The notes beneath the pieces were generated by a model. It had not been told where the DNA came from. It saw only the letters and a program-made list of their open reading frames with translations, and ran no database searches. 14,157 bases of DNA from a virus: IMG/VR virus record IMGVR_UViG_3300050506_000139, positions 1 to 14,157 of that record; one strand, 5' to 3'. This document shows positions 1 through 14,157 of the stretch, piece after piece. The position numbers and the translations under genes were made by a program. Position 1 is the first letter of the stretch. Each line of letters begins with the position of its first letter.

Positions 1-127
1 CCACATGCGAGAGCAAATGCGCCCGAAGAGCGGGGTCACGCGTCGTCCCCCGTCCTTTCGCGCGACAAGTAGGCATGCAGGTCTGCGCGTCGCCAACGGC
101 GGTGGCTGCCGAGCTTCGACGCCAAGC
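1..127. repeat. Terminal direct repeat, copy 1 (identical to 14031-14157)
   Basis: Base-by-base comparison shows ccacatgcgagagcaaatgc...gagcttcgacgccaagc at both window ends, 127/127 identical. Confidence 0.97.
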
Positions 128-317
128 TGGCAAGGCCAGCATCGCGGCGAACCCGGGCTTGGAATGCGAGGACATTGGGGCAGCCGACTTCCCGCGCGGC
201 GTCCGCGTCGGTCAGCAGCGCGGTGCGGCCGGACTCCTCGAGCATCATCCGAAACCGGTCGCTCAGGCGGTTCTCAAACGCGACCAGCTTGGCGTCGAAT
301 TCCTCCTCGGTGATCAT
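36..317 (-). CDS. Excisionase/AlpA-like HTH DNA-binding protein (MerR-superfamily HTH_17-like)
   Basis: The C-terminal LLTDADAAREVGCPNVL...GSHRRWRRADLHAYL fits the excisionase pattern (LT..EaA..lG...., G.r.rW...dl..wL). I prefer the ATG at 317 (MITEEEF), preceded by GGTGAAGG, which also holds the upstream stop. The track ORF extends to 362. Continues by wrap-around into the replication gene. Confidence 0.55.
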   Translation of the reverse strand: MITEEEFDAKLVAFENRLSDRFRMMLEESGRTALLTDADAAREVGCPNVLAFQARVRRDAGLASLASKLGSHRRWRRADLHAYLSRERTGDDA

Positions 318-325
318 GACGACCT

Positions 326-520
326 TCACCGCGGGAGCGCCTCTGGCACGGGCAAACCACACGTACCCAACACTTTCCGGATGCGCTCTGCCAGCAGTGG
401 GCGCACGGGCTGCCCAGACAGCATGCGCTTGACGGTGCGGGGATCCGCGACCGCCATTGCTGCGACCATTCTGATCTCGGTTTCGGTGAGCTCATTGTTC
501 CGCTCGCTCATGTTGTCCAA
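326..520 (-). CDS. Small HTH regulator (DPRTVKR motif)
   Basis: 64-aa ORF with VAAMAVADPRTVKRMLSGQPVRPLLAERIRKVL, an HTH-like helix-turn-recognition helix. TTG at 520, alternative ATG at 511. Tightly packed in the leftward operon. Confidence 0.5.
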   Translation of the reverse strand: MDNMSERNNELTETEIRMVAAMAVADPRTVKRMLSGQPVRPLLAERIRKVLGTCGLPVPEALPR

Positions 521-569
521 GATGAACGAGAGAGCGGGTCAAGTCACTGACACCCGAGCAGAAAATATG

Positions 570-1172
570 TCAGTCTCGGATTTCTCGGATTTCTTTTAGC
601 CAGGCGGCAATCAGATTCTCGGTCAATACCGGACGCGGTGTGATCTTCTTTCCGCCATCAAGCACCCTGCGCACAGTCCGCGGATCTATGCCGAGCTCAT
701 CAGCGATTATCTCAGATGCCTTCCCGAGCGTGAGCCCCTTGGTCTGTCGCGGTTCGTGGCCGGGAGGGTAGCACTTCGGTCGTCGAGGCCGGTTGTCTAC
801 GAGATCGTCGAGCCGGCTATATATGTGTTCCTGTCTTTTTGCGAGCTGCCATGCGTCGCCACGACCGGGCCACAGGCGTTTCCCCTCGGCTCTGACTTCA
901 TTCTCGAGCCGGCGAGTCTCGGACTTGTCCGCGTCCATTTCAAGAAGGTTCGCATCGAAGGCCTGGACCAGTTCCATCAAGCGAGTGGCTTCGTCCCGAA
1001 GAAAGTCACGACACTCTAGAAGCGATGGGAATCGGTTTTTACGTCTGGGCAACTGCTCCGCGTCCTTCCCGCATCGCTTAAGAGAAACCGGGCAGGGCGC
1101 CGAGGACGCGGCGACCGGCGCCCACACAGCGGGGATCAACCACTGCGTTGCCCGACATGGATACTCTACCAT
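570..1172 (-). CDS. Regulatory protein with coiled-coil middle and C-terminal HTH (DPRTVRR motif); start uncertain
   Basis: The C-terminus LGKASEIIADELGIDPRTVRRVLDGGKKITPRP repeats the motif of the next gene. ATG at 1172 has no clear RBS and internal ATGs (for example 977) are possible. First gene of the leftward operon, divergent from 1371 (+). Confidence 0.5.
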   Translation of the reverse strand: MVEYPCRATQWLIPAVWAPVAASSAPCPVSLKRCGKDAEQLPRRKNRFPSLLECRDFLRDEATRLMELVQAFDANLLEMDADKSETRRLENEVRAEGKRLWPGRGDAWQLAKRQEHIYSRLDDLVDNRPRRPKCYPPGHEPRQTKGLTLGKASEIIADELGIDPRTVRRVLDGGKKITPRPVLTENLIAAWLKEIREIRD

Positions 1173-1370
1173 GCAGCTCTGACACGACGTGTGCTAGCCT
1201 GACATCTGCGTTCGCAGAAAACTCCGCGCGGGATCGGCATTGCTGGGGTTTTTGCCCCCTGAACGAGTGCACCTGATTGCGATCCCAGCTGCACGTCGTC
1301 ATCATTCGGCCGGAACTACCCACGGGCCGAGTACATTGATCCATCGACCTAGCACATCTCTGGAGCATAG

Positions 1371-2153
1371 ATGAAGCGATTAACAACGATCCTTCTGTCC
1401 TCGCTCGCCGCTATTTCTACTACCATTGTCGGTCTCAGTCGCGTCGATATTCCAAGAGGATTCTGGGGCGAAAAGAGAGTTCTGATCATCTTAGCGATCG
1501 CGTATCTTGGTATCCACGCTTTCGCGCAGCCGATAGTAAAAGATGTCAAAGAACGCATGACGAGTCGAAGCGTGCGGCGGCGAGAGGACATCACTGAATT
1601 GCTTATTGGGGCGCTTAGCAACATCGCCGACCAAACGGGTCTCGATTGGAGGCAGCTTGGTGTCCACGTTTTTCTCGTCAAAACCAAATGGCGTTGGCCC
1701 TTCCGAAAAGCCTGGTGGCCGCTCCGCAATCCGCGGGAGCAGGTCCAATATCAGGTTTCTCGTTTTAAGATCGCGAGGCATCCGCCGTCATCGGGCATTC
1801 GATGGACAAAGGGCAAGGGCGCCATAGGAGACTGCTGGGAGAAGCAGGTGCCGATCTCAGCAAATCTATACCGGGACTTTGCGCCCTATGCGAAGTTAAC
1901 GGCACAAGAGTGGGACGGGTTGGATCGCGACGTTCGGTATGGGCTGAGCTTTGATGAGTTTCGCAGAGTGAAAGATTACGGAGGGGCAATCGTTGTTACA
2001 CCAATCAAAAAGGCGGACGACACGACCAAGTACATTGGGTGCGTGAGTGCGGATTCGCCCGGCGATTCCTTACAAAGACTCGATAACCCCAGCGTTTTTG
2101 AAGTCCTTCAGGGTGTGGCAAAAACCACCGCCACGCTCTTGTCACGGCGGTAG
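1371..2153 (+). CDS. Membrane protein with two N-terminal TM helices and a GAF-like C-terminal domain; candidate cargo
   Basis: ATG with GGAG 5 nt upstream. Two hydrophobic helices (ILLSSLAAISTTIVGL, VLIILAIAYLGIHAFA). The C-terminal pattern LGVHVFLV...RF...IRWTKGKGAIGDCW...GGAIVVTPI...YIGCVSADS resembles the GAF/GAF_2 core (G.G..G ... vPl ... iGvl..ds). Opposite strand to most genes and more A/T-rich by eye. Confidence 0.6.
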   Translation: MKRLTTILLSSLAAISTTIVGLSRVDIPRGFWGEKRVLIILAIAYLGIHAFAQPIVKDVKERMTSRSVRRREDITELLIGALSNIADQTGLDWRQLGVHVFLVKTKWRWPFRKAWWPLRNPREQVQYQVSRFKIARHPPSSGIRWTKGKGAIGDCWEKQVPISANLYRDFAPYAKLTAQEWDGLDRDVRYGLSFDEFRRVKDYGGAIVVTPIKKADDTTKYIGCVSADSPGDSLQRLDNPSVFEVLQGVAKTTATLLSRR

Positions 2154-2178
2154 GGTATACTTATGAATTAGGTGACGG

Positions 2179-2370
2179 ATGCCTAGCCAAACCAGAAAAC
2201 TGGTCAAGCAGACCGTAGTCACGGAGCAGTTTCTTGAGACGTTGGAGCAACTTCACGTGAGCGAAAAGGTCGTCGAGGCGGCAAAGCGCGCGCTCGAGAG
2301 ACCGTCGACCGACGAGGAAACAAAGCTTCCACCCCGAAGCCACCCGGGGCGGGTACGCCGCTCAACGTAA
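2179..2370 (+). CDS. Small helical hypothetical protein
   Basis: 63-aa ORF 25 nt downstream of the membrane GAF-like gene, on the same strand, with AGGTGA just upstream of the ATG. No recognisable motif. Confidence 0.3.
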   Translation: MPSQTRKLVKQTVVTEQFLETLEQLHVSEKVVEAAKRALERPSTDEETKLPPRSHPGRVRRST

Positions 2371-2536
2371 GATCTCTGCCCGTCCGCTTCCGCTACAACG
2401 GCCATATGGAGCTCGGTATGGTCGGCGCGTCACCTCCGACAATCTCATGTCTGTGTGTTAGGGCGCCTGGCTGAGCGATCCCTTGTGGTCATCGGCGCTT
2501 GTCGGCGACCGAAGACATGACGCAACTCATTGTAAT

Positions 2537-2577
2537 GCTTAGAAGGCCTGTGCTCTATCCAGCTGAGCTACGGGAGC
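2537..2577 (-). other. Truncated tRNA-Arg(UCU): 5' half only (acceptor 5' strand, D-arm, anticodon stem 5' strand and loop); candidate attP identity block
   Basis: The minus strand reads GCTCCCG TA GCTC AGCTGGATA GAGC A CAGGC CTTCTAA GC. This is a canonical acceptor, D stem-loop and anticodon loop with anticodon TCT. Similarity ends 2 nt after the loop. No T-arm or 3' acceptor strand was found downstream. It starts 7 nt after the integrase stop. Confidence 0.75.
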
Positions 2578-2584
2578 AATGTCG

Positions 2585-3886
2585 TCAAACCTTACCTAAT
2601 CGTTCAGCTATCTGCAACGCGACGCCGGCGTCATCCGTGGCCGTGTCGGCTTCCATATGGTGTCTGGTATGGTCGTCGGCCATCTGCTGCCGTCGGGCCT
2701 GGTCCATGCTGGCGATGTCGGCGGGCAGCTTGGGCGCGAAGCTGAGGCGCGCCACCTGCGCCGAGAGGCGCGCGGGCATCGCATGCGCGTAGCGCTCGAC
2801 CTGGCTCATGGACTTCCACCGCCCCAGCTCCCTGAGCTCCACCGGATGCGTCCCCTCGGCTGCCAGGAGCGTTGCGAACGCATGGCGCAAAGCGTGGTTG
2901 TAGTGCTGCGGGACGTGAACGCCGGCCGCTACCAGCAGGTCCTTGACCTTCCGCATATCGTGCGGGTTGACCGCGCGGGCACCCTTCCCGCGCGCCCGCG
3001 GCATCGCGATAACCAACCCGTCTTTCGTCGCCGGGCACTTTTCTCGCCATTGCCGAAGCATCACCACCAGCTCCGGATTAGCCGGCACGGTCTTGACCTC
3101 CTCGTTCTTGGTGGTCGTCGCCCAGGACCGCGCCACGGTGATAAGGCCCCGCTCCAGGTCGCAATCGATCCAGCGTAGACCGCAAATCTCCCCGAGTCGC
3201 AGGCCCAAATACGCGCCGAGGGCAACGGCCGGCTTCAGATAACCGATGCCCATGGTCTCCGCGGTGGCTAGCATCTTCTCGAGCTCCCCGGCCGTGTAGT
3301 AGTCGGGCTTGCCGAGTTGGACCGATGGCCGCTCCACCTCGGCCGTGGGGTTCTCGCACGTGATGATGCCTTCCTTGCGAGCCCAGCGGTACATCCGGGA
3401 GATGACCTTCAAGACGTGAACCACGGTCTGCTTGGAACGCTTCGAAAGGATGTCATCGCGCAGCCGCTCCACATCCTTACGCGTGACATCGCTGGCGAGC
3501 TTCTGGCCGAGGGCCGGCAAGATGTAGTGCGTAAACTTGGAGCGCGCGAAGGCGCGGTATTTCTCCAGGTCTTTGATCCGTGGCCGAGAGTATTCGGCGA
3601 GAAAGCGATCGGCGACCTGATTCACGGTAAGCGCCACAGGCGCAGGCGCAGGCGGCTTCGGCTCTGGTAACCCTTTTCGAATGCGATCGGCTCGGGCCTC
3701 TGCCTCGCGTTCCAGCCGAGCGCCTCCATCCCGGGCTTGCGCCATGCTCTCGATCGCGTGCCCGTCGCCATCGGTGAGTAAAAGCTTGCTGTTTCGGCGC
3801 AGCTCGCCCTGCGCATCGACCTCGAGCAGCCCTTCAGCGTAGTAGCGCCAGCCCTTGCGTGTCTTCCGTCTGAATACGTAGGCCAT
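2585..3886 (-). CDS. int: Tyrosine recombinase / phage integrase
   Basis: Catalytic signature present: R in GLRLGEICGL, HALRHAF (H-x-x-R), GRWKS, and catalytic Tyr in VERYAH. N-terminal SAM-like core-binding region (VNQVADRFLAEY). ATG at 3886 is preceded by AAGGAGG. The track start at 3889 is a TTG one codon upstream. Confidence 0.92.
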   Translation of the reverse strand: MAYVFRRKTRKGWRYYAEGLLEVDAQGELRRNSKLLLTDGDGHAIESMAQARDGGARLEREAEARADRIRKGLPEPKPPAPAPVALTVNQVADRFLAEYSRPRIKDLEKYRAFARSKFTHYILPALGQKLASDVTRKDVERLRDDILSKRSKQTVVHVLKVISRMYRWARKEGIITCENPTAEVERPSVQLGKPDYYTAGELEKMLATAETMGIGYLKPAVALGAYLGLRLGEICGLRWIDCDLERGLITVARSWATTTKNEEVKTVPANPELVVMLRQWREKCPATKDGLVIAMPRARGKGARAVNPHDMRKVKDLLVAAGVHVPQHYNHALRHAFATLLAAEGTHPVELRELGRWKSMSQVERYAHAMPARLSAQVARLSFAPKLPADIASMDQARRQQMADDHTRHHMEADTATDDAGVALQIAERLGKV

Positions 3887-5262
3887 CAATCCTCCTTTTC
3901 TCGGCTACTCAACCCACTGCAGTTGAACCGAGGCGAATGCCTGCCTGAACGAACGCGCCGATGGTGTAGTCGTCGCATTGGAGAGTAAAATCGCCGGCGG
4001 ATCGGAATGTGAATCGTGGGGGTTTGGCTATGGCCGGGATGAGTCGCGGACGGAAGGCATTCAACGTTATCGGCGGCTTGGTGTTGATCGCGATGGCCGT
4101 GGCGGTCGTGGCGATCAGAGAGATGAAACAAGAGCCGGTACCGCGTCCCGCTTCTGTCACTCCGCCCCAAGCCGCTCCGTCCCTTTCCACGACAAATGCA
4201 CCAGGACAGCAGCCTCCCCCTTCTGATCCCAATGCTCCTATAGATACCAAAAACCTGGGCGCCTCGATCGCGCAAGAGTTGAAAAGCCTCAGCGCGACGT
4301 ATGCGAGCGAAGGCCCCCCCGGCAAGTACGCCGACCTGATTGATTCGGGGCTTTCGATCGATACAAGAGCAATTCTGGACGTGGCCGAGAAGGGCGCCGA
4401 GAACGCTCGGACGATTACATACTCCCATTTGAAGAAGGATGCGGACCGTTACGCCGGAAAGCCGTTTGTCTTTAGCGGACCGATCCTTGAAATACAAGAG
4501 GCGAAGGGGCAGCTCGTTGCTCGAATCAACCAAGGAAGCTATAGCGAACGCCCGATCTGGGTGGCAGCCACGTTTAACACCGAATTCATCGACGGGAAAT
4601 ATGTCGACGTGATTGGATACTTGGCAGGTTCTTACAGCTATACATCGCAAGCCGGTTGGAACATAACGATCCCTTCTGTCTTCGCTATAGCAATGACCAA
4701 AAACGGGAATCTCGCCAGGGCCCGAGCGCTCCGAAGCGGAAAGCGCTTGCGGCGCAGCGAAGACGAGGAGTGAAATCACGAAACAGTCCTCCTCTCTCGG
4801 CTCAGCAAACGCCATCTGTTCTGCATTCGAGGCGGCTTCCATGATTTCGTGGACCCGCGCCTGCGATGCCGCGAGGTCGCGTTCGAGGGTGTCTATGCGG
4901 GACCGGTCGGCCTGCGACGCGGCCAGCGCTTCGTGGCACATGTCTTTCAGTTCGGAGACCCGCGCCTTGGTGGTGTTAGCCGCGCGTGCATGGCCCCCTG
5001 CGACATCGACCAGCCGCGCATTCTCTCCCTCCAAGCGCTCGCGGTCCCGCTCCAGCTCGGCGACCCGCGCCGCTAATTGCTCGCATTCGGCTTCGGCGCT
5101 GTTCATTTCGCGTTCGAGCTGGTCACGCCACCGATCGCGTTCGGCGCGGGCCTCATCGCGCTCGCGTTCTAGCTCGGCGACCCGCGCGCGTAGGCGGTCG
5201 ATGATTTCCGCGTCAGCTTTCACGCCGGCAAGGTCGGAGATTCTTTCCTTGTGCCAGCTCAT
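3886..5262 (-). CDS. Coiled-coil protein; only the first 155 or so codons (5262 to about 4800) look coding, and the frame then stays open to 3886
   Basis: ATG at 5262 overlaps the upstream stop (ATGA). The N-terminus is heptad-like with an internal duplication (ARVAELERERDEA / ARVAELERDRERLE). Beyond about 4800 the translation is antisense to 4009-4773 and looks non-protein-like. The first in-frame stop is at 3886-3888, overlapping the int ATG (TGATG). Confidence 0.45.
   Translation of the reverse strand: MSWHKERISDLAGVKADAEIIDRLRARVAELERERDEARAERDRWRDQLEREMNSAEAECEQLAARVAELERDRERLEGENARLVDVAGGHARAANTTKARVSELKDMCHEALAASQADRSRIDTLERDLAASQARVHEIMEAASNAEQMAFAEPREEDCFVISLLVFAAPQALSASERSGPGEIPVFGHCYSEDRRDRYVPTGLRCIAVRTCQVSNHVDIFPVDEFGVKRGCHPDRAFAIASLVDSSNELPLRLLYFKDRSAKDKRLSGVTVRILLQMGVCNRPSVLGALLGHVQNCSCIDRKPRINQVGVLAGGAFARIRRAEAFQLLRDRGAQVFGIYRSIGIRRGRLLSWCICRGKGRSGLGRSDRSGTRYRLLFHLSDRHDRHGHRDQHQAADNVECLPSATHPGHSQTPTIHIPIRRRFYSPMRRLHHRRVRSGRHSPRFNCSGLSSREKED
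4009..4773 (+). CDS. Signal-anchored or secreted protein with Pro-rich linker and globular C-terminal domain; function unknown
   Basis: N-terminal basic stretch plus hydrophobic helix (RGRKAFNVIGGLVLIAMAVAVVAI), a P/S/T/Q-rich linker, then ordinary globular composition rich in K, I, Y, F and N. Start is GTG 4009, ATG 4030 or ATG 4039. The opposite-strand frame here is R/C/H/S-rich junk. Confidence 0.6.
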   Translation: MNRGGLAMAGMSRGRKAFNVIGGLVLIAMAVAVVAIREMKQEPVPRPASVTPPQAAPSLSTTNAPGQQPPPSDPNAPIDTKNLGASIAQELKSLSATYASEGPPGKYADLIDSGLSIDTRAILDVAEKGAENARTITYSHLKKDADRYAGKPFVFSGPILEIQEAKGQLVARINQGSYSERPIWVAATFNTEFIDGKYVDVIGYLAGSYSYTSQAGWNITIPSVFAIAMTKNGNLARARALRSGKRLRRSEDEE

Positions 5263-5594
5263 GCGGCCTCTTTTTCTTCATCTTCCGTGAGCCCCTGATT
5301 GAGCGCTGGGCCGTAGCTTGCCGCACATACCGAATCGATGCGCTCAGCAGCCTCACCAAGAATGAACTCAAGGGCTTCGATTTCGTCTAACCCAAGTGAG
5401 CTTCCACCGGACGACTCGATGGTGCGATAGACCAAGCGGAGATAGTGCGCGACGATAGCGGCATCCTCGTTGATCTTCTCGAACACCTTGCTCATCTGAA
5501 CCGGTTGCGTCCGTGCCTTGCTGCCAACGTTCCTCTTCGCCTTCATGTTCCCCCGTCCTTTCGTTGCGCCCTCGTTTTTCGGCGCCTCTGCCAC
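5259..5594 (-). CDS. Hypothetical protein (basic N-terminus, acidic C-terminus)
   Basis: 111-aa ORF. Start is GTG 5594 or ATG 5546 (MKAKRNV, preceded by AAGGACGGGGGA). Its stop overlaps the next gene's start (ATGA). Confidence 0.55.
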   Translation of the reverse strand: MAEAPKNEGATKGRGNMKAKRNVGSKARTQPVQMSKVFEKINEDAAIVAHYLRLVYRTIESSGGSSLGLDEIEALEFILGEAAERIDSVCAASYGPALNQGLTEDEEKEAA

Positions 5595-5621
5595 CTACGC
5601 GCGCGGCCCCACGCCGCACGC

Positions 5622-6020
5622 TTACAAACCAGCGTCACGCAGACGTGCATTGATCGCCGGGAGTGTCTGCCATGCCGGATCGCAGTGATCGCAATCGTCG
5701 CGCCCCAAGTGGCCGAGATGAGAGTGCATCAACTCGTGTGCATAGGCTGACGCGTCGAAGCTGCCCGGCCAAAAGAGCTCCACGCAATCGCAATGGCTGA
5801 AATAGAGCCCTTGGTACTGGTGGCCGTCCTTAGGGTCCGTGACAAGACCGGCGTCCCATTGCACCAACGGCGCGGGATCCGTTTCGTCCATCATCTGGTT
5901 CCATGTGATGGCCTCGGCCTCGCACTGCCTCGGCTGCCCATGTTCGCAATCGACCGGAGTTCCCGAGGGACCGTAATAGCACCCGCCGACGAACAGGAGA
6001 AGCATGAGCGCTCGCCGCAT
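5622..6020 (-). CDS. Cys-rich lipoprotein with HExxH motif (putative small zinc metallopeptidase-like)
   Basis: From the ATG at 6020 the protein begins MRRALMLLLFVGGC, a signal peptide plus lipobox-like VGGC. The mature part has 8 Cys and AYAHELMHSHLGH. The track ORF starts upstream at 6128. Confidence 0.6.
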   Translation of the reverse strand: MRRALMLLLFVGGCYYGPSGTPVDCEHGQPRQCEAEAITWNQMMDETDPAPLVQWDAGLVTDPKDGHQYQGLYFSHCDCVELFWPGSFDASAYAHELMHSHLGHLGRDDCDHCDPAWQTLPAINARLRDAGL

Positions 6021-6202
6021 CAGGCCACCAACCGCGCCAACGTGGAACAGCACCGAGTGCAGTTGCGCAACTCTGCCGCCGCTTCGCCATCGATTGCCTG
6101 CATCCCCACGTAAGGCAGTGCCTGCCATGCGACCTCATCGATCTTCAGCGCCTCATGCGTTTCACGCGAACACATCAGATACACCTCTCCCTTTGCGGCC
6201 AT
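6020..6202 (-). CDS. Small hypothetical protein
   Basis: 60-aa ORF with ATG at 6202. Its stop overlaps the lipoprotein ATG (TGATG). Weak RBS and no motif. Confidence 0.3.
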   Translation of the reverse strand: MAAKGEVYLMCSRETHEALKIDEVAWQALPYVGMQAIDGEAAAELRNCTRCCSTLARLVA

Positions 6203-6237
6203 AGGCCGCGCCTGCGAACGTTCCTCTTGAGCGCTTA

Positions 6238-6402
6238 CTACCGCTGGACTTTCTTACTTTCCTGATTGGCCAGCCAGTCGAGCAGCGCGACGCGCACGAT
6301 ATCCGCACGCGAAATCTTCAGGCCGGGGCGCTCCGCCGCCATGCGTTCGGCCGCCTTATCGAGCTTTGCGACGAGCCCCGTGTCGAGCCTAATGTGAAGC
6401 AT
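6238..6402 (-). CDS. Ribbon-helix-helix (CopG/Arc/MetJ-like) DNA-binding protein
   Basis: From the ATG at 6402 (GAGGAGGAAAAG upstream) the protein is MLHIRLDTGLVAKLDKAAERMAAERPGLKISRADIVRVALLDWL. This is a beta-strand followed by two helices, typical of RHH. The track ORF extends to 6462. Confidence 0.7.
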   Translation of the reverse strand: MLHIRLDTGLVAKLDKAAERMAAERPGLKISRADIVRVALLDWLANQESKKVQR

Positions 6403-6433
6403 CTTTTCCTCCTCGATAACCATGCGAGCGATT

Positions 6434-6575
6434 CGATACAAGAACGATACCAACACGTCCACTCTTGGGTGTACGCAGGGTTACGCGCGCGACCTGGGGC
6501 AATACCCGGGTATCGTTTGCAACACCTGTTGTATCGGTTGCCACACCGACTGTTACGGCCGATACACGGGTATCG
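6434..6575. promoter_or_regulatory. Operator or iteron array of CGATAC/GTATCG hexamers between the TerL stop and the RHH gene
   Basis: CGATAC at 6434 and 6445 (11-bp spacing). 16-bp palindromes CAATACccggGTATCG (6500-6515) and CGATACacggGTATCG (6560-6575). 18-bp direct repeats GTATCGtTTGCaACACC / GTATCGgTTGCcACACC at 6510 and 6531 (21-bp spacing). Confidence 0.55.
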
Positions 6576-6594
6576 TCTGACCCACCGGCCCGCA

Positions 6595-8022
6595 TCACAC
6601 CCGCTGCCGTATCACGCCGAATGGGCCGGCGCGCCGCATGATGGTTCTGTTCTGGAAGCGCTGTGGCGTAACGGGCTTATGTCGCACCGTCTCGACGAGG
6701 CAATAGCGAAGGCTATCCAAGGCGTGCGATGGGATCCGCTCGTCGATTTCTTCGCGATAGAGGCCCGTGCGCTTGTCGAAGAGCCACGAAGCAGCCTTGA
6801 TCTCGCGAATGAGATTCGTGCAGGCGTCGAGGATGCGCAGGCGCGGACCGTCGGGTCCCGGGTGCAGCCAGGTTTGGATATGCGTTAGGCCCGGCTTGAT
6901 CGACTTGTCGGTGCCGCGCGCATTCAGTCCACGTCGGCAAAATGCATCGATGACATCTGGCCGGGCGGAATCGACCACGACCGTGTTAGCCTGCCATCCA
7001 TTCGCCAGCTCGCGGATCACGGTCGCCCATGTTCGTCCGTGTTCATCGCCAAATGAATGTAGATGCGCCTCGTACACTTCTTCGGTGACGAGCAATTCAT
7101 CACCGAAATCGAGCAGAACGATCGCAGCGCCAGGCTGCGCATAGCCGACGTCGTGACCAATCGCAGCAGCCTTCGCCATGCTTCGGAGCGACCGGCCGCT
7201 CAGAGAGATTCCGTAACGAAGCTTCGCTTCCCTCTCTGTGATGACATGGATTTCGTCGTCAAACTCATCCAGAACGCGCGAACTCGACGGCGCTTCCCAG
7301 TTGGCGAGCCATAGCCGACGAAAGGACCGCTCGGGCAGTGTCTCCTGGGCGGCTTCGATCTCAGTCGTCTGGATGACGGGATTCGCACTCGTTGGCCAGC
7401 CGAATGAAGCGTAATCGGGATGGTACGAAGAATCATCCGGCATCCCGCGCCGCACCAGCTCGCTATAGGTCCAGTGCGTAGGATTGTCGGGCGTCGTAGT
7501 GAAGAGCGCGAAGCTATGCGGCGCCCAGTCGGCGAGCCTGGCGCGCAAAACTTCATTCCACAGTCCCGGCTCCGTGCCTGGTGTCGTCAACTCGTCGACG
7601 AACACTCCATGCAAGCGGAGACCGCGCAACCGTTCGCCGCCGTCTTCGCCCGAGCGAAACGAGACGAGCACATCGCCTTTGAGCCAAAGATCCTGCTCGT
7701 GACGGTTCCAGCTTTCGACGAGAGCATCTCCGGCCGCTTCGAAGGTTAGCCGCCGTGGCTCTGAGAGCATGCCGAACGTCGGCGTGCAAACGAGCAGATG
7801 AACCGCCGGCCTCCGATCCTTGCCGATGCCGGCCACCTGGTTGACGTGGCCCTGCGCGCGCAGTTCGTAGCCGCGCTGCAGAAGTGCCGTGACGGCTGCG
7901 CGCGTCTTGCCGCTTCGGTTGCCGGCCGAAGCCGTGACGAACCGCTTACGGCACTGCATGAATTCTGCCTGCGCAGGATGCGGTGTAAAATCATTGGCTG
8001 GTATTCGAATGCTGACTGTCAA
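6595..8022 (-). CDS. terL: Terminase large subunit
   Basis: Q-motif HPAQAEF, Walker A GNRSGKT, Walker B LHGVFVDE and coupling motif FTTTP. Nuclease-domain acidic motifs IGHDVGY, VVVDSARP and SHALDSLRYC. The Q-motif lies upstream of the first ATG, so the TTG at 8022 is the likely start; it overlaps the upstream stop as TTGA. Confidence 0.9.
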   Translation of the reverse strand: MTVSIRIPANDFTPHPAQAEFMQCRKRFVTASAGNRSGKTRAAVTALLQRGYELRAQGHVNQVAGIGKDRRPAVHLLVCTPTFGMLSEPRRLTFEAAGDALVESWNRHEQDLWLKGDVLVSFRSGEDGGERLRGLRLHGVFVDELTTPGTEPGLWNEVLRARLADWAPHSFALFTTTPDNPTHWTYSELVRRGMPDDSSYHPDYASFGWPTSANPVIQTTEIEAAQETLPERSFRRLWLANWEAPSSSRVLDEFDDEIHVITEREAKLRYGISLSGRSLRSMAKAAAIGHDVGYAQPGAAIVLLDFGDELLVTEEVYEAHLHSFGDEHGRTWATVIRELANGWQANTVVVDSARPDVIDAFCRRGLNARGTDKSIKPGLTHIQTWLHPGPDGPRLRILDACTNLIREIKAASWLFDKRTGLYREEIDERIPSHALDSLRYCLVETVRHKPVTPQRFQNRTIMRRAGPFGVIRQRV

Positions 8023-8222
8023 TGCAAATCAGGCTCCAGCGCGTGCTCCACGTCGTCGAGTAGCCGCACGCAGGTGCGCTGCATTTCCTTGACACAGCCC
8101 GCCAATGCAATGAGCGCTTGCCGATCGCGTTTCTCGAGCGCATCGAGAAACCGAGGGTTTCGTAGGCTCGCCACATGTCCTGCGGCCATCCTGGCGTAAT
8201 CGTGCAAATGCGATAAGAGCAT
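8019..8222 (-). CDS. Small helical hypothetical protein
   Basis: 67-aa ORF with ATG at 8222, 2 nt after the Gly-rich gene's stop. Its own stop overlaps the TerL start. Confidence 0.5.
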   Translation of the reverse strand: MLLSHLHDYARMAAGHVASLRNPRFLDALEKRDRQALIALAGCVKEMQRTCVRLLDDVEHALEPDLH

Positions 8223-8224
8223 CT

Positions 8225-9193
8225 CTAGCTTCCCAGCAATTGCACGATCGTGCCCGCAGACCCGGACGCTCCGTTGGTGCCGCCATTGGTTCCTGTGCCA
8301 CCCGCACCACCGCTAACGGTTGGGGCCGTACCGATCGCCGAGCTCATGGTTGTGAGCAAGATTCCACCACCACCGCCACCACCACCGCCACCGCTGCTGC
8401 TATTGCTGCCCGTGCCAGCGCCATTACCGCCGGCACCGCCGTTTGCGGTGATAGAACCGGAATTCGAAATCTGTACTGCAGCGATGACTATGATGCCACC
8501 GCCTGCCCCGCCTCCGCCACCTTCACCACCGGTACCACCCCCGAAAACAGCTCCGCCACCCCCACCGCCAGATCCGCCCTTTAGACTTACCAATGCAGAT
8601 GCGCCAACGATAGCGCCCAGCGTTGCCATTGGATTCGCTCGGTATCCTCCGGCGCTGGCAGAAGGGGCAGTTGCCGCTCCGCCTGCACCTCCGGTATCTG
8701 GTGCACCGATTGCGGAGTCGCCTCCGTTCCCACCAACGCCACCGATCTGATTAGATCCCCCGGCGCCGCCGGACGCTCCGGCTCCGGTTCCATTTGATCC
8801 CGCACCGCCTGCCGATCCTGAAAGTAACGACCCAGCCGCACCCGCAGTGCCACCAGCGCCGCCGTTGGATCCTGCTACTGCGTTGGCCCCGGCATTACCT
8901 GCAACTGAGATGATCCCACCAGATGCAATCGAGAGTAGTTGGGATACGTAGATGCGGAAACCGGCCGGCTTTAGTACACCTGTGCTACTGATTGTAAGAT
9001 TGCGGTAATACATATCCCGCGTGAGGGTCGTCGTTCCACCGGTGATAGTGACGTCGCCGTCGCTGCCATCACCAAATATGCCGCTTCCGCCGATCAAGCC
9101 GTTAATATCGTCTTGAACGGTTTGTCCCCATGTTGGCGTGAAAACAGTTCCGTTAAGCCAGGTAGCGGGCGAAGTAATCTTTCCGATCGCCAT
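8225..9193 (-). CDS. Glycine-rich beta-helix-like protein, putative fibre / receptor-binding protein
   Basis: The N-terminus reads FGDGSDGDVTITGGTTTLTRDMYYRNLTISSTGVLKPAGFRIYV. It is followed by long G/A/S/N/T repeats (GGAGG, GNGG) and a run of 10 Gly. This resembles phage fibre-like glycine-rich proteins from memory. The plus-strand Pro-rich ORF 8250-8750 is its mirror. Confidence 0.6.
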   Translation of the reverse strand: MAIGKITSPATWLNGTVFTPTWGQTVQDDINGLIGGSGIFGDGSDGDVTITGGTTTLTRDMYYRNLTISSTGVLKPAGFRIYVSQLLSIASGGIISVAGNAGANAVAGSNGGAGGTAGAAGSLLSGSAGGAGSNGTGAGASGGAGGSNQIGGVGGNGGDSAIGAPDTGGAGGAATAPSASAGGYRANPMATLGAIVGASALVSLKGGSGGGGGGAVFGGGTGGEGGGGGAGGGIIVIAAVQISNSGSITANGGAGGNGAGTGSNSSSGGGGGGGGGGILLTTMSSAIGTAPTVSGGAGGTGTNGGTNGASGSAGTIVQLLGS

Positions 9194-9195
9194 AG

Positions 9196-9384
9196 TTAAA
9201 TGCTCTCCAAATCCGCTAGCGTCGCGCGCATGCTCTCGATGTCGTGAATCAACGCTTCAAGCGCCGAGTCAACTTCGCCGATCAGCGGGCGCGGATCGCT
9301 CTGCAAGATACAATCAAGCTCCGCCAGACGATCAGCCGCCTGGCGGAGATGTGCTACCAGCGTGCGCGTGATGCTGACGCTCAA
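9196..9384 (-). CDS. Small helical hypothetical protein
   Basis: 62-aa ORF. TTG start overlaps the upstream stop (TTGA), and it ends 2 nt before the Gly-rich gene's ATG. Confidence 0.45.
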   Translation of the reverse strand: MSVSITRTLVAHLRQAADRLAELDCILQSDPRPLIGEVDSALEALIHDIESMRATLADLESI

Positions 9385-9614
9385 TCGCGGTTCCTCGGCG
9401 GCAAATCGGCGTTCGCGTCTTTAATCATCTGTTCTTGCTCGGCCTGTCCCGTCCTGCGCCCACCGCCGGCAGGCGTACGAAATGCATCATTGCCCAGGTT
9501 TCCGGCGCGCCGCTCCTTGCGCATACCGCCCACTAGGCCAGTATCGCTCTGTTCGCCGGTCGCCTTTTCGTCGCGGGCCTTTTGACTCTGTGAATGAAAG
9601 TTGCTTTTACCCAT
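9381..9614 (-). CDS. Small basic, probably disordered protein
   Basis: 77-aa ORF with ATG at 9614 preceded by GAGGAA. Rich in K, R, G, Q and E with no hydrophobic core. Confidence 0.5.
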   Translation of the reverse strand: MGKSNFHSQSQKARDEKATGEQSDTGLVGGMRKERRAGNLGNDAFRTPAGGGRRTGQAEQEQMIKDANADLPPRNRD

Positions 9615-9626
9615 AGGTTCTATTCC

Positions 9627-10115
9627 TCATTCCGTGATAGTTGATTCCGCGAGCCGCTGAATTGCTGCTCGCCAATTCGGTCCACGTTGATTGTTGATGA
9701 GCTCTCGCAAGCGCTCAAATACGGTCGCGAGCGGGTTGCCCTCTTGTTTCAGCTCGTGAGCCAGGAGCAGGATGGCGCGTCCGACATCGGAGTCGAGGCT
9801 CACGTCGGCGATGAACCGTTGCTGATTCTCGTGACGCTGTTGGGCGCGTTCGGTTCCGAGCGCCATTTCGGAAAGCATCGCGGCTTCTTGATGTCGCTCC
9901 TCGAGCGAAGCGAGATCCTTCTTTCGCTGTAGCTGCTCGAGCGTGGCGCGCTCTGCGTCGGTGAATATGGTAGCCGCCGTCGGTTCGTCGTCTGGCAAAC
10001 GACGTGTCTCTAGCGGCTCCGCGGTTCGAGAGGCGCGTTCCTCGGCAAGTGCAGCATTGACGTCGATCGGCCGGTTCTCTTCTGGAAACCAGCTGCTCTG
10101 GTACGGGAACGCCAT
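9627..10115 (-). CDS. Hypothetical protein (acidic, helical)
   Basis: 162-aa ORF. Its ATG is immediately adjacent to the upstream stop (TAAATG). Protein-like composition. Confidence 0.6.
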   Translation of the reverse strand: MAFPYQSSWFPEENRPIDVNAALAEERASRTAEPLETRRLPDDEPTAATIFTDAERATLEQLQRKKDLASLEERHQEAAMLSEMALGTERAQQRHENQQRFIADVSLDSDVGRAILLLAHELKQEGNPLATVFERLRELINNQRGPNWRAAIQRLAESTITE

Positions 10116-10421
10116 TTACTTGCTCGCCTTCTTCGCGGCTTCGCGCTCAGCGTATTCCGCCTCGGTCAACAGGCTCGGGCAGGCGTTGCGCACCGACCAG
10201 GGCGAGATACCGGTGCCGAGTTCGGCATCGAAGGGAATCTCGACCCATTCATTCTTGGCGACCGACTTTTTGACGCCTTCGAAGTTCAGGATGCAAGTGC
10301 CGGGCGGATAGCCACGGGGTAAAAGCTCGCGGGTCTGTTCGACGATCTTGCGCACTTTCTTGACGTCATCGTAAAAATAGTCGGCCCAAAGATACATTCC
10401 GCTGTTGAAATACTTCGGCAT
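10116..10421 (-). CDS. Hypothetical protein
   Basis: 101-aa ORF with ATG at 10421 preceded by ACGGAGGAAAAATAAC. Aromatic-rich, globular-looking sequence. Confidence 0.65.
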   Translation of the reverse strand: MPKYFNSGMYLWADYFYDDVKKVRKIVEQTRELLPRGYPPGTCILNFEGVKKSVAKNEWVEIPFDAELGTGISPWSVRNACPSLLTEAEYAEREAAKKASK

Positions 10422-10460
10422 GTTATTTTTCCTCCGTGTTAAGTGGTGTTCGGTTACGAG

Positions 10461-10766
10461 TCATTTGCTCTTCCTTCTGTCGCGAATCTCCCGGATCACG
10501 TCGCCAACCATTTCGGCCAGCCGCTCATGGGCCGTACCCTTTCGATCGAGCGCAGCACCTGCAATCGCGTCCAATCGATTGGCCGGCTGGCGTTCGGCCG
10601 GCGCAGGTTCGGCCGGTGCATTTTTCTTGGCCTCGAGCTCGGCGCGTTGGGCGGGCGAAAGCTGCGCCTTGAGCAATTCGGCTTTCAAGCGGGCTGCCTT
10701 GGCCGAGTGTTCTTCGGCGGCAATTTCCGCCTCTTGCAGGCGTCGGAAAACGTTATCGTCACTCAC
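10461..10766 (-). CDS. Coiled-coil hypothetical protein; first gene after the leader and terminator
   Basis: I prefer the in-frame GTG at 10766 (GAGGA 7 nt upstream). The track's TTG start at 10796 lies inside the U-tract of the upstream hairpin. Ala/Glu/Lys-rich helical sequence. Confidence 0.55.
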   Translation of the reverse strand: MSDDNVFRRLQEAEIAAEEHSAKAARLKAELLKAQLSPAQRAELEAKKNAPAEPAPAERQPANRLDAIAGAALDRKGTAHERLAEMVGDVIREIRDRRKSK

Positions 10767-10794
10767 GCGCACATCCTCGCTTTCGGTTGGTTGC

Positions 10795-10838
10795 AAAAAA
10801 ACGCTCTGCTAGTCCGCATTCTGTCGAGTGGGCAGAGC
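10795..10838 (-). terminator. Hairpin plus U7 tract (intrinsic-terminator-like) on the minus strand
   Basis: The minus strand reads GCTCTGC-(22 nt)-GCAGAGC-G-TTTTTTT. The loop is large, so this is tentative. It is preceded by a 9-bp-stem hairpin at 10843-10871 (ACACCGCAA/TTGCGGTGT). Confidence 0.4.
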
Positions 10839-11189
10839 AGCCACACCGCAAAGGAGGCGCCGTTGCGGTGTCGGCGCCGGGCCGCGGACCTTGGCCCTGA
10901 CAAATGAAAGAAATGCCCGCTGCCCATGTCTCTGCGGTCGGCGGGCGCAACCGGGCCGGGTCGGCACATGGGCGGCCGATGAATCATGGTCGGCTTCTCC
11001 ACCGGCCGCGAGTGCGTGTGAGGATATCGACCGACCGGGGCTTCCCGAGGTCACGCCACCGTCCACCTAGAAAGGCAATTTTAAGGTCGGCTTTGGCGTC
11101 TGACCCGCCGGGGCGGGCAGAACCACGGGAGACGGAATTGCACCCTCTAGATTCCGCGATCTGCTCGTGCAAAACGCATTTCTCAGCGG

Positions 11190-11660
11190 TCATATTTGGG
11201 CCTGCCTATGGCGTCGAAGTCCTGCCAGGCGCGCTGCCTTCTGTTCAGGAGTAAGCCGGTCCCAGTTGCGGGCTGGCTTCGGCGCGGGAGCGCTAGACGC
11301 TGCCGCCGTGGTGCCGCCTTTCCGTGTGACCTCGAGCTCTGCGCCCTCGCAGGCGCGGCACAGAATCACGTAACGCCATTCCTGCACGCCTTCGGGCAGG
11401 TGGTACAGAACGGCCGGCGCGCATGAATCGCGGCCGATGCCAAACCGGCTCGAGCAATGGAAGCATCGATCGGCTTGGTCATGGAGCTGTGCGAGTAGCG
11501 GCTTGTAGGTGTGGTCCGCGTTGCAGTAGCCACGGCTCTCGAGCGCAAGCAGCTCCCGCTTCCAGGGATTGACGCAGCATTGCGTGAAGCCGTCGATTAG
11601 AAAGGCTCTGTGCCCGCATTCGGGACAATTGGCATGTTTCAGCGGTTCGGTCTGTCTCAC
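11190..11660 (-). CDS. Cys-rich zinc-finger protein (possible degenerate HNH-like or Q-like regulator)
   Basis: CPECGH, CFHC and LCRAC pairs are present. YHLPEG....LCRAC loosely resembles an HNH beta-beta-alpha-metal core. I prefer the GTG at 11660 (AGGGAG 8 nt upstream), overlapping the upstream stop as GTGA. The track ORF extends to 11816 in a frame overlapping the previous gene. Confidence 0.5.
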   Translation of the reverse strand: MRQTEPLKHANCPECGHRAFLIDGFTQCCVNPWKRELLALESRGYCNADHTYKPLLAQLHDQADRCFHCSSRFGIGRDSCAPAVLYHLPEGVQEWRYVILCRACEGAELEVTRKGGTTAAASSAPAPKPARNWDRLTPEQKAARLAGLRRHRQAQI

Positions 11661-11839
11661 CTCGAAGGCTCCCTCTCGGGCCATAGCTGAAACGGGACGG
11701 CCAGCGGCGGTCGCGAGGGCTCCTTCGCGGCCTGTGATGCGGCATGCTGCTCTTGGCACTCCGCCGAGCAGTACACGTGAAGGCCACCGGGGATGGTGCC
11801 GCCGCACCAGATGCACTGTGTCTCTTTGTCGTCGCTCAC
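11657..11839 (-). CDS. Small zinc-ribbon protein (zf-FCS/TRASH-like CxxC-x12-CxxxC)
   Basis: GTG at 11839 is preceded by GAGGAGGAACCGAA and overlaps the upstream stop (GTGA). Motif CIWCGGTIPGGLHVYCSAEC. Confidence 0.55.
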   Translation of the reverse strand: MSDDKETQCIWCGGTIPGGLHVYCSAECQEQHAASQAAKEPSRPPLAVPFQLWPEREPSR

Positions 11840-12441
11840 TTCGGTTCCTCCTCGTGTTCGGGTAATGCGTACATTTTCAGCCCCAGCTCGGGCCGCTCGG
11901 TCACCACGGCCAACCGCAGCGAACCATCGGACGCCTCGAGGTAGACGCGGCCATCGCTGCCCTGCCAGCCCTCGAGCGCCGCACCGGTTGCGCCACGCAG
12001 CGAGACCCGCTGCATGCCGCCACTCGAGACCTGCGCGATTTGGATCAACGTGGGCTGTGGCGTGCTTGCCGCGGCTGCTTCGGCATTCATACGCCTTTCG
12101 CGTACCTTGCTGCGGCTATCGAGAAGGTGAGCCACGCGGGCAGAGATGTAATCCAGTCCCTTGCGCACGTTCTCGTCGCCCAGCGGATCGGGGTGGTCGC
12201 GCATTACACGCTGCGCTTTGGCGATCTCAAGCGCCGCCTGGCTAGTCAAAACGTTCTCGTCGCCGTAGTTAAGCCGTAGCAGCCTGTTATTACCCGTATA
12301 ATTACCAAGGTCTTCGCCGCGTAACTGCTTCGAATACAGGCCAGTCTTGAGAGCGTTCAAATTGCCGCGAGGAGCGCCACCGCGGCCTCGTCGTTTGGGG
12401 GGCTGGCGTCGCGTTGTTTTTGGCGTTTCACCGGCACTCAT
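11836..12441 (-). CDS. Basic N-terminus protein with GAPRGNLNALKTGLYS motif; possible small-terminase-like DNA-binding protein
   Basis: 201-aa ORF with ATG at 12441 and GCGAGG upstream. From memory, the motif G-A-P-x-G-N-x-N-A-x-K-x-G-x-Y-S occurs in YjcR-type and small-terminase-like phage proteins. Not verified. Confidence 0.6.
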   Translation of the reverse strand: MSAGETPKTTRRQPPKRRGRGGAPRGNLNALKTGLYSKQLRGEDLGNYTGNNRLLRLNYGDENVLTSQAALEIAKAQRVMRDHPDPLGDENVRKGLDYISARVAHLLDSRSKVRERRMNAEAAAASTPQPTLIQIAQVSSGGMQRVSLRGATGAALEGWQGSDGRVYLEASDGSLRLAVVTERPELGLKMYALPEHEEEPK

Positions 12442-12526
12442 GCTGCCTCGCTGTTTGCATTCCCGTCCATACCGGCGTCCATACAGAACCCGTTAACCAT
12501 GCGAACTCTTTGGAATAGCACAGGCC

Positions 12527-12556
12527 TATATAGCCTCTGTGCAATCGCGCTGCTAA
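12527..12556 (-). promoter_or_regulatory. Candidate sigma70-like promoter (TTAGCA-18 nt-TATATA) upstream of 12441
   Basis: The minus strand reads TTAGCA (12556-12551), an 18-nt spacer, then TATATA (12532-12527). It sits in the most A/T-rich stretch of the 12442-12634 intergenic region. Confidence 0.3.
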
Positions 12557-12605
12557 TAATTGCGCATAGTTGCGTTTGTTTGGCGCTACTTTCGATGGCG
12601 CGCGT

Positions 12606-12629
12606 GAGGCAGGCGACGAGGCAGGCGAC
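12606..12629. repeat. Tandem 12-mer x2 (GAGGCAGGCGAC)
   Basis: Read directly from the sequence: 12606-12617 equals 12618-12629. Located 5 nt from the DnaC-like stop codon. Confidence 0.9.
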
Positions 12630-12634
12630 AACCA

Positions 12635-13423
12635 TCATCGCCCACCACCACGCAGGCTATTGCCGCTGACCACGTAGAACCGACCGCCATCTTTGAGCCG
12701 ATCCAGAATCCGCACGCCATAGCGGGTTTTGAACTCGGTCAACGTGCAGTTGGTCGTCAAGATCGTCTTGCGGCCGTCGGCGTAACGGGCATTGACCACA
12801 CCATCGAGCAGCGAGGAGAACGCGCCACCGCGGTCGTTGAACTCGGTCCCAACGTCATCGACGATGAGTAGGCTACAGCGCTCAATCTTGGCCATGGCTT
12901 CATCATCGAAACGGGGATAGCGAGCCAGCTGGGGCGCAGTGAGGAACACCACGACCGACGATGCTTTCGCAAAGACGTTGCTCTGTTTCAGGGACTCAAG
13001 TGCGCGTTGGCGAAGAAGCTGATAAACAGCGGTCGCGCATGCGCTGGTCTTGGCCAAGCCTTTGTTGCCAGCGAGAACCAAAAGCCAATCAGAGCCAGCG
13101 ATGAAGTCACGCGCTACCCGATGTGCTTCGGCGTCGCATTTACCGCCAAGGACCTGATCGACAAATCGGCGAGGCAGATCGCTGGATTTAAACCGGAGCT
13201 CGGCCCGTTCCAACGCATCACGCCGGTCTTCTTCTTCGCAAAGCCGCTTCTGCTGCGCCTGATAGCGTTCGAGCTGGGCTGCGAAGTCGGGATCGGCTTC
13301 TATTCGGGTAAGAATGTCCTTGTAGGTTAGACCAACGCTGGGGTCAGCCAATGTGGTCGTGACAGTGTCGCTAAGATTAGTCATCGATTGCCTGTTCCCC
13401 TGCGGGTCCGTAATCACGGTCAT
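12635..13423 (-). CDS. DnaC/IstB-like AAA+ ATPase (helicase-loader-like) with atypical Walker A
   Basis: Walker A-like GNKGLAKT has Ala where the GKT glycine is expected. Walker B LLIVDDVG, sensor-1 TILTTN and RILDRL are present. Alternative ATG at 13384 would overlap the upstream stop by 8 nt instead of 47. Confidence 0.8.
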   Translation of the reverse strand: MTVITDPQGNRQSMTNLSDTVTTTLADPSVGLTYKDILTRIEADPDFAAQLERYQAQQKRLCEEEDRRDALERAELRFKSSDLPRRFVDQVLGGKCDAEAHRVARDFIAGSDWLLVLAGNKGLAKTSACATAVYQLLRQRALESLKQSNVFAKASSVVVFLTAPQLARYPRFDDEAMAKIERCSLLIVDDVGTEFNDRGGAFSSLLDGVVNARYADGRKTILTTNCTLTEFKTRYGVRILDRLKDGGRFYVVSGNSLRGGGR

Positions 13424-14036
13424 CGGTGAGTTTCAGGGCGCCAACGCCGGATCCATTCGTACTCTTGATCTTGTTAGTGCTCGTGCTCGTGATCGTGCTC
13501 GTGATCGTGGCGCTACTTGAAGCCGTTTTGGCAACGGTGGTTGGCAACGACGGTTGGCAATCAGGGTTGGCAACCCGCTTGGCGTCCGCGATGGCGTCCG
13601 CGAAGATCTCATGGAAGATTGCCCGCAGGTCGCGATGCGCACCTCTGGTCAGTTTCTTGGCCTTGAACGTTGCCATGAACTTGTCTGCGGCTAGCAGGGC
13701 TTCGCTGCGGAGACGACAATCCGGCAGCTCGTCGTAGACCTCGCGCCAGAGCTGAATTGTCTTCGGGCTGGTAGGTGCGTTGTCCGCCATCGCCTCCGGT
13801 AGCCACACCAGCGGCGCGGACCAGTCCGCCTTGACGAATCCCGCGCGCTCCAGCTCACCGAAGCATTGCAAAAACGCGCCGAGGTCCCATGCAAGCGATT
13901 CCGCCAAACCGGCGCGGCCAGCGGAGAACAATCCAGGCAGCGCTCGGCGATGAGGACCGGTCAGCAAGTACAAATGAAGCAGCCGTGCATTGGGCGCGGG
14001 CGCCGGGAGGGACCGAAAACGCCGGTCCTGCCACAT
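13377..14036 (-). CDS. Replication-organiser-like (winged-helix) protein with S/T-rich linker; start uncertain
   Basis: From the ATG at 14036 the protein begins MWQDRRFRSLPAPAPNARLLHLYLLTGPHR...PGLF. This resembles the N-terminal pattern of phage replication-organiser / DnaD-like proteins, and it sits directly upstream of the DnaC-like gene. The track start (TTG 14126) would overlap the wrapped Xis-like gene. Confidence 0.45.
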   Translation of the reverse strand: MWQDRRFRSLPAPAPNARLLHLYLLTGPHRRALPGLFSAGRAGLAESLAWDLGAFLQCFGELERAGFVKADWSAPLVWLPEAMADNAPTSPKTIQLWREVYDELPDCRLRSEALLAADKFMATFKAKKLTRGAHRDLRAIFHEIFADAIADAKRVANPDCQPSLPTTVAKTASSSATITSTITSTSTNKIKSTNGSGVGALKLTDDRDYGPAGEQAIDD

Positions 14037-14157
14037 GCGAGAGCAAATGCGCCCGAAGAGCGGGGTCACGCGTCGTCCCCCGTCCTTTCGCGCGACAAGT
14101 AGGCATGCAGGTCTGCGCGTCGCCAACGGCGGTGGCTGCCGAGCTTCGACGCCAAGC
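14031..14157. repeat. Terminal direct repeat, copy 2 (identical to 1-127)
   Basis: Same comparison as copy 1. An exact end overlap is the usual signature of a circular contig from a de Bruijn assembler; true terminal redundancy is the alternative. Confidence 0.97.

Follow-up and report, generated by a model that had tools for sequence, protein, structure and literature searches.

A 5' half of tRNA-Arg(UCU) beside the integrase gene of a circular phage-like element: probable core of an attP of reversed polarity

A 41-nt segment located 7 nt past the integrase gene of a circular, phage-like element corresponds to the 5' part of a tRNA-Arg(UCU) gene, and probably represents the core of the element's attP, an attP of the rare reversed polarity. 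We put the probability of this reading at roughly two in three. The element was analysed in the form of IMG/VR record IMGVR_UViG_3300050506_000139, positions 1 to 14,157, and this whole stretch of 14,157 nt is referred to as the window. In a preliminary description of the same DNA, a tRNA-Arg(UCU) 5' half had been placed on the minus strand, 7 nt beyond the stop codon of the integrase gene, and described as a canonical tRNA from G1 through the anticodon loop (TCT) and 2 nt beyond, where the sequence diverges, with neither a T-arm nor a 3' acceptor strand. The sequence itself and a truncated match to the tRNA model of Rfam (RF00005) agree with this description in each of these points, and the lack of the 3' parts was also apparent from ARAGORN, Rfam, and the comparison of pattern counts with those in shuffled sequences. 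The coordinates of all features are given in Table 1.

On the minus strand, from 2577 (tRNA position 1) to 2537 (the final tRNA-like base), the fragment reads GCTCCCG-TA-GCTC-AGCTGGATA-GAGC-A-CAGGC-CTTCTAA-GC, comprising the 5' strand of the acceptor stem, the D-arm, the 5' strand of the anticodon stem, the loop CTTCTAA (2545-2539, with the anticodon TCT at 2543-2541), and GC. It is directly preceded by GGTAAGGTT, the integrase stop codon TGA (2587-2585), and CGACATT, and is followed by ATTACAATGAG. Beyond the loop, the sequence is GCATT where the anticodon stem would need GCCTG, i.e. ATT replaces CTG after GC. The 41-mer occurs only once in the window and in none of 200 shuffles. When a stretch ending at the break was searched with RF00005, 2577..2537 was aligned as a 3'-truncated tRNA (model positions 1-39 of 71; 24.9 bits, E=0.0013), in which all stem and loop positions fit at high posterior probability, whereas a stretch crossing the break was forced into a full-length alignment scoring 18.1 bits (E=0.38; gathering score, 29). 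Because the full-length score is below the truncated score, the DNA past the break detracts from the match and is not a degenerate 3' half. The preliminary description had proposed that a full-length tRNA be sought with a covariance model; no full cloverleaf above the gathering threshold was obtained for the feature. The fragment thus begins exactly at the first tRNA base (+1) and stops 2 nt after the anticodon loop, at a recognised crossover sublocation, mirroring the class of att sites located in anticodon loops, which is one of the reasons for regarding it as an attP.

No tRNA was predicted by ARAGORN in the window or reported by an Rfam scan of the whole window at E<=10, and the T-loop and 3'-acceptor patterns in the window are not more frequent than those in shuffles; a T-arm and a 3' acceptor strand are absent both at the site and elsewhere in the window. 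The presence of a second tRNA half, a split tRNA, or an intron-containing tRNA in the window was also considered and was rejected, as ARAGORN, Rfam, and the pattern scans were all negative.

Table 1. Features of the circular element, with positions in the window
Feature	Position	Strand	Basis or remarks
Assembly overlap	1..127	.	Same sequence at 14031-14157; marks the 14,030-bp circle
Terminator-like G+C-rich hairpin with T-rich tail	2329..2352	-	Pattern match only; 185 nt downstream of the tRNA part, same strand
Arm-type-like repeat, copy A (far side)	2402..2427	.	~128 nt from anticodon-loop centre; minus-strand CCATAY at 2421 and 2409
tRNA-Arg(UCU) 5' part, positions 1 to about 40; proposed attP core	2537..2577	-	Sequence, Rfam RF00005, tRNA gene comparison
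7-nt spacer CGACATT, integrase stop codon to tRNA position 1	2578..2584	-	Sequence
Tyrosine integrase, 433 aa (P0001)	2585..3886	-	Phage_integrase and Phage_int_M matches; catalytic residues
C-terminal extension of the integrase, 50 codons	2588..2737	-	In none of nine aligned homologues; overlaps the arm on the int side of the proposed attP
Arm-type-like repeat, copy B (int side, in the ORF extension)	2653..2678	.	~124 nt from anticodon-loop centre; minus-strand CCATAY at 2672 and 2660
Genes besides the integrase gene (terminase, loaders, glycine-rich protein)	6595-8022, 8225-9193, 12635-13423, 13377-14126	- (all)	

Positions 8-41 of the fragment (34 nt) are identical to the corresponding part of 27 genomic tRNA-Arg(UCU) genes (L010-L036), 26 of which are found in low-G+C gut Clostridia and one in a Candidimonas MAG (61% G+C), the lone high-G+C genome match. 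All of these genes continue with GCCTGGGGTC...TTCGA, that is, with GCCTG and a normal T-arm, and have acceptor stems other than that of the fragment; the acceptor stem in the Candidimonas MAG is unlike it at 4 positions. When the acceptor stem and the D-arm were fixed and the anticodon stem was left free, more than 120 metagenomic tRNA-Arg(UCU) genes matched, the closest among those fetched (L049) being identical at 40 of 41 positions and several others at 39. The 34-nt identity to 27 genes and the 40/41 metagenomic match indicate that the fragment is real tRNA-Arg(UCU) sequence, and, judged by its sequence, it unmistakably derives from a genuine tRNA-Arg(UCU) gene. The exact 41-mer was absent from all three collections searched (185,579 species genomes, 241 million metagenome records, and IMG/VR), and the relaxed patterns retrieved from genomes and metagenomes no gene having both this acceptor stem and this anticodon stem. 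The comparison of the 41 nt with candidate host tRNAs, which the preliminary description had suggested, therefore gave a perfect match over positions 8-41 and a near-perfect one over the whole length, but no exact counterpart in the three collections; host genomes with an exactly matching tRNA, or with integrated copies of the element, were not found in the collections searched.

The window contains an exact terminal direct repeat of 127 bp. A Logan contig (L001, SRR5585387) with a 29-bp terminal repeat is a circular permutation of the window with 100% identity, and the unit length obtained from each of the two is 14,030 bp. An ENA contig from a further sample (L157), which has a 141-bp terminal repeat, is permuted differently again and has a unit length of 14,018 bp; the sole difference from the window is one copy of a 12-nt tandem repeat (unit, GCTCGTGATCGT) near 13,498, within the DnaD-like gene, and one copy is missing in two of the assemblies. 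Together with a fourth contig containing the same DNA (L002), the circle was recovered, differently permuted, in four assemblies from at least three samples (SRR5585387, ERZ27257998, and ERZ27257709), which differ in assemblers, k-mer sizes, and break points, and no differences were found in the att region among all four. The circular permutations and the identical att region indicate that the tRNA part belongs to the element: the fragment is present in the excised, circular (attP) form, and not in a chimera, which also speaks for the attP reading. The contigs on record with the integrase gene or its neighbours are all circles of 10-20 kb, and none of them lies inside host DNA; the element may exist mainly as an episome. 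Since no attB, attL, attR, or integrated copy was found in the three collections or among all contigs with the element, and since these contigs are all circles, integration at this site is something that we infer.

The fourth contig (L002; ENA ERZ27257998 k141_563081; 14,228 nt) terminates at window position 2525, 12 nt beyond the tRNA fragment, and is longer than the circular unit by about 200 nt, compared with the 141 expected. The assembly graph may have broken at the tRNA-like repeat, or the contig may contain a sequence variant.

The genes of the element encode a large terminase subunit, DnaD-like and DnaC-like helicase loaders, the integrase, and a 322-aa glycine-rich protein. No portal, capsid, or tail gene was recognisable in the element, and most of the remaining ORFs had no PHROG match. 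The G+C content of the element is 60%, and its phage genes are of bacterial type; a megablast search of the whole window against GenBank phages yielded no match. Given its size of 14 kb, the element is possibly a kind of satellite, or else a small phage of an unusual type.

The product of the integrase gene, P0001, contains both the catalytic domain residues and the core-binding domain of tyrosine integrases. It matches PF00589 (E=3.7e-19), PF22022 (E=6.7e-08), and phrog_1 (E=1.8e-54), and its residues R230, K260, H331, R334, and Y366 are invariant in alignment A1; at alignment position 357, it has W where a nearly invariant His stands in the homologues. The N-terminal region of ~90 aa is conserved among the homologues and has no Pfam match even at E<=10. 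All nine aligned homologues stop at ...LSF, which corresponds to residue 383 of P0001 (codon 2740-2738), and the distance from this conserved end to the tRNA part is about 160 nt, the usual spacing between int and attP. Because the ORF runs on through the attP arm, the closeness of the fragment to the stop codon is largely a by-product of this extension; the adjacency to the integrase gene stressed in the preliminary description is correct as a distance (7 nt after the stop) but is partly incidental, as the conserved integrase ends at residue 383.

A search of 5.8 billion proteins revealed no homologue of P0001 above 36% identity, the nearest sharing 29-36%, and an integrase search in IMG/VR gave no match. 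For the homologues P0003, P0009, P0006, and P0012, no tRNA gene lies within 10 kb, nor is a tRNA fragment visible downstream of int, and with no tRNA link in these contexts the homologue clade of P0001 is uninformative on att polarity. The gene for P0006, found in a Myxococcales MAG, has an element boundary 148 nt upstream, from which point on the DNA is identical although the host contexts differ (L005 9456, L007 3787, and L006 1), and is followed by a second tyrosine recombinase gene, a context that suggests a multi-recombinase mobile element, not a tRNA-specific island. The gene for P0009 begins 3 nt past a 249-aa transketolase N-terminal gene (L004 9249-11122) and may reflect an insertion at the end of a protein-coding gene. 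In the element itself, a 458-aa ORF upstream of int (3886-5262, minus strand) is protein-like in its first ~150 residues only (coiled coil) and looks over-called, and a 254-aa ORF on the opposite strand (4009-4773, plus strand) has PHROG matches (phrog_26645, E=3e-14); a separate promoter region for int may therefore lie near 3887-4008.

The tRNA fragment resides in the sole sizeable non-coding stretch beside int, between the two copies of a 26-nt direct repeat. Copies A and B are identical at 21 of 26 positions (81%), a match that was reached in 1 of 200 Markov shuffles of the 800-nt region, and they contain four of the window's six minus-strand CCATAY motifs, arranged as two pairs 12 nt apart. 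The copies are placed nearly symmetrically about the anticodon loop, with their centres at -128 and +124 nt from 2542. These repeats look like putative arm-type integrase sites, in the layout expected for a heterobivalent tyrosine integrase, and the attP would appear to extend over roughly 2402-2678. The site appears to combine the features of an attP, being excised, next to int, and flanked by candidate arm-type repeats, and its symmetric flanking by repeats in a non-coding stretch beside int is a further reason for the attP reading. No sigma-70 consensus promoter was detected at 2100-3000; by eye, a weak TTGCAG-17 nt-TAAGGT was seen, the end of which lies 11 nt ahead of tRNA +1.

Similar fragments exist elsewhere. 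Among 120 metagenome loci fetched with a relaxed pattern, four (L075, L092, L101, and L138) contain tRNA-Arg(UCU) 5' halves whose break lies at the anticodon stem-loop or directly after it. In L075 (69% G+C; 5' half at 1477-1520, plus strand), a divergent integrase gene, 115 nt, and the 5' half are followed by repressor-, excisionase-, and RuvC-like phage genes, a layout that, with phage genes on both sides, appears attP-like. In L092, a host-type promoter precedes a 5' half (83-125, plus strand) that breaks after CTTCTAAGC, as in the window, and an integrase gene is located 165 nt downstream. L101 and L138 each have a 5' half behind a host-type promoter, with unrelated DNA after it, and L138 also contains a 77-aa N-terminal remnant of an integrase. 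These three loci may be regarded as attL-like. The integrases of L075 and L092 are no close relatives of P0001; hence the reversed polarity has arisen, or is in use, in several lineages. This recurrence of 5' halves at the same isoacceptor, together with the precedent in the literature, likewise favours the attP reading. In IMG/VR, a search with a pattern for the D-arm and anticodon loop identified no clear 5' half in 117 scorable matches, which is consistent with the rarity of such fragments. A viral tRNA-Arg(UCU)-like gene in another IMG/VR record (L204, at about 2373, minus strand) has extra bases directly after the anticodon loop (CTTCTAA GCTCGACTTAGAAGGCGTAGG), which may be due to a duplication or an insertion in the anticodon arm.

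Several other origins of the fragment have to be weighed against a reversed-polarity attP. It is rather unlikely that the site is a relic, i.e. that a once functional attP persists as a decaying remnant in an element that now replicates only as a circle. Such a history would be in line with the record of circular forms only, the absence of the exact 41-mer from the species genomes, metagenome records, and IMG/VR, the extension of the integrase ORF through the arm region, and the element's own replication genes (for the DnaD-like and DnaC-like loaders). However, the fragment shows no decay, as each stem and loop position fits the tRNA model; moreover, the integrase has kept all of its catalytic residues, and the arm repeats are still 81% alike. 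Many phages carry tRNA-Arg(UCU) for AGA codons, and phage-borne genes of this kind are very common (115 of the 117 scorable IMG/VR matches are complete genes), so that the fragment might also be what is left of a once complete cargo tRNA-Arg(UCU) gene that lost its 3' half by deletion and lies beside int by coincidence. This origin is less likely, and we regard it as improbable, given that the break falls exactly at the anticodon stem-loop, that the fragment is centred between symmetric repeats and directly beside int, and that no 3' remnant is present anywhere in the circle.

An error of assembly, in which a host tRNA read was joined to the contig of the element, can be considered only a very slight possibility. 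In metagenome assembly graphs, the D-arms of tRNAs constitute repeats, and one of the ENA contigs stops 12 nt beyond the tRNA part; however, four assemblies, which differ in assembler, k-mer size, and break points, all have the same att region, and this effectively refutes such an error. The reversed-polarity attP itself has points against it: no attB and no integrated copy among the collections and contigs searched, nearest integrase homologues that are not beside tRNA genes, no sigma-70 consensus promoter, and a missing second half of the anticodon-stem inverted repeat (GCATT, not GCCTG).

If the fragment is an attP core of reversed polarity, the events at this site, the position of the crossover, and the route of transcription can be pictured as follows, as far as we infer them. 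The circular 14,030-bp phage-like element would encode a tyrosine integrase of the heterobivalent type, which would bind both candidate arm repeat blocks (~+/-125 nt), and strand exchange would take place within the anticodon loop of a host tRNA-Arg(UCU) gene or directly beside it, with the element contributing tRNA positions 1 to about 40. One junction would then consist of the host upstream region with its promoter and the orphan host 5' half, followed by ATTACAATGAG, and the other of int, CGACATT, and the element 5' half joined to the host 3' half, yielding a complete tRNA. The rebuilt tRNA gene would be co-oriented with int and located 7 nt past its stop codon, and int would remain intact. 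The expected sequence of the attR-type junction would be ...GACGACATTGCTCCCG...CTTCTAAGC followed by CTG and the T-arm, and that of the attL-type junction would be non-element DNA, the 41-mer, and ATTACAATGAGTTGCG. Transcription of the rebuilt tRNA would start in the element, either by read-through from int or at a weak promoter in the 3' end of int, and would be followed by trimming by RNase P. The hairpin at 2352-2329 would end int transcripts in the circle and, after integration, would stop host-promoter transcripts crossing the orphan 5' half.

A more far-reaching proposal, which we hold to be doubtful, is that integration acts as a promoter swap. The host tRNA-Arg(UCU) would then have no other source than the transcript of int or a cryptic promoter within the extension of that gene, and the strong host promoter would be redirected into the element and halted at 2352-2329; this would happen in a bacterial element with int intact and one arm hidden in the tail of the integrase. 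tRNA-Arg(UCU) is often the sole decoder of AGA, and if the promoter swap were true, rare-codon decoding in the lysogen would be coupled to the transcriptional state of the element. More generally, tRNA att sites of reversed polarity, at which the rebuilt tRNA is parted from its native promoter, are under-studied, and their orphan 5' fragments can be mis-handled by tRNA finders and island mappers. The element is a compact example in excised form; its candidate arm sites are clear and its integrase is intact, so that it could serve in tests of both mechanism and expression.

Elements carrying the 3' part of a tRNA gene are the rule (PMC1635311, PMC4383910), and the preliminary description was right in calling the polarity of this fragment opposite to that of the usual tRNA attP, the 5' polarity being a minority form in the literature (PMC4383910, PMC6563490, PMC8371274). 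In Table 1 of Islander, the displaced tDNA fragment is a 3' fragment in 3760 islands and a 5' fragment in 159 (159/3919), and the configuration filter of Islander explicitly admits 5' fragments lying upstream of the tDNA (PMC4383910). A reversed tRNA attP is rare but not unprecedented and constitutes no new category, being counted in Islander and described for bacteria and archaea. Zhao & Williams 2002 reportedly describe an element of reversed orientation, and anticodon-loop tRNA att sites are said to correspond to sublocation A of Williams 2002. Like the reversed-polarity islands (Islander 5' class; Zhao & Williams 2002), the element has the 5' part of its putative target tRNA and a tyrosine integrase. 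Those islands have an orphan 5' fragment upstream and the rebuilt tRNA at the far end; here, in contrast, there is an excised circle only and no mapped island.

pTN3-like integrases use the 5' half of a tRNA gene as attB, and it is the integrase promoter that drives the rebuilt tRNA (PMC8371274); the attP and attB of pTN3 have 41 bp in common (PMC5495485, S2 Fig legend). Transcription of the rebuilt tRNA from the int side, as put forward in the preliminary description, fits this archaeal report; the read-through itself is presumed, and no sigma-70 consensus promoter was detected at 2100-3000. The proposed site would share with the pTN3/TKV4-like archaeal elements (Krupovic & Bamford 2008; Cossu et al. 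2017) an attB formed by a tRNA 5' half and the expression of the rebuilt tRNA from the integrase side. However, these elements have archaeal hosts and an SSV-type integrase whose gene contains the attP and is split, whereas the present element has bacterial-type phage genes, a G+C content of 60%, and an intact int. Its core is not located inside the int ORF, as it would be for a 'suicidal' integrase of the SSV/pTN3 type, and starts 7 nt past the stop codon. [quoted passage not shown] In the myxophage Mx8 and in SSV, the att core is within the int ORF, and the protein is altered or split on integration (PMC4383910). The integrase reading frame also overlaps attP DNA in the present element, but it does so in the int-side arm, with the core outside the ORF. 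The mechanism suggested in the preliminary description is essentially that published for the rare 5' class; what is distinct here is the bacterial-type element, the integrase that stays intact, and the attP arm lying within an extension of the integrase ORF.
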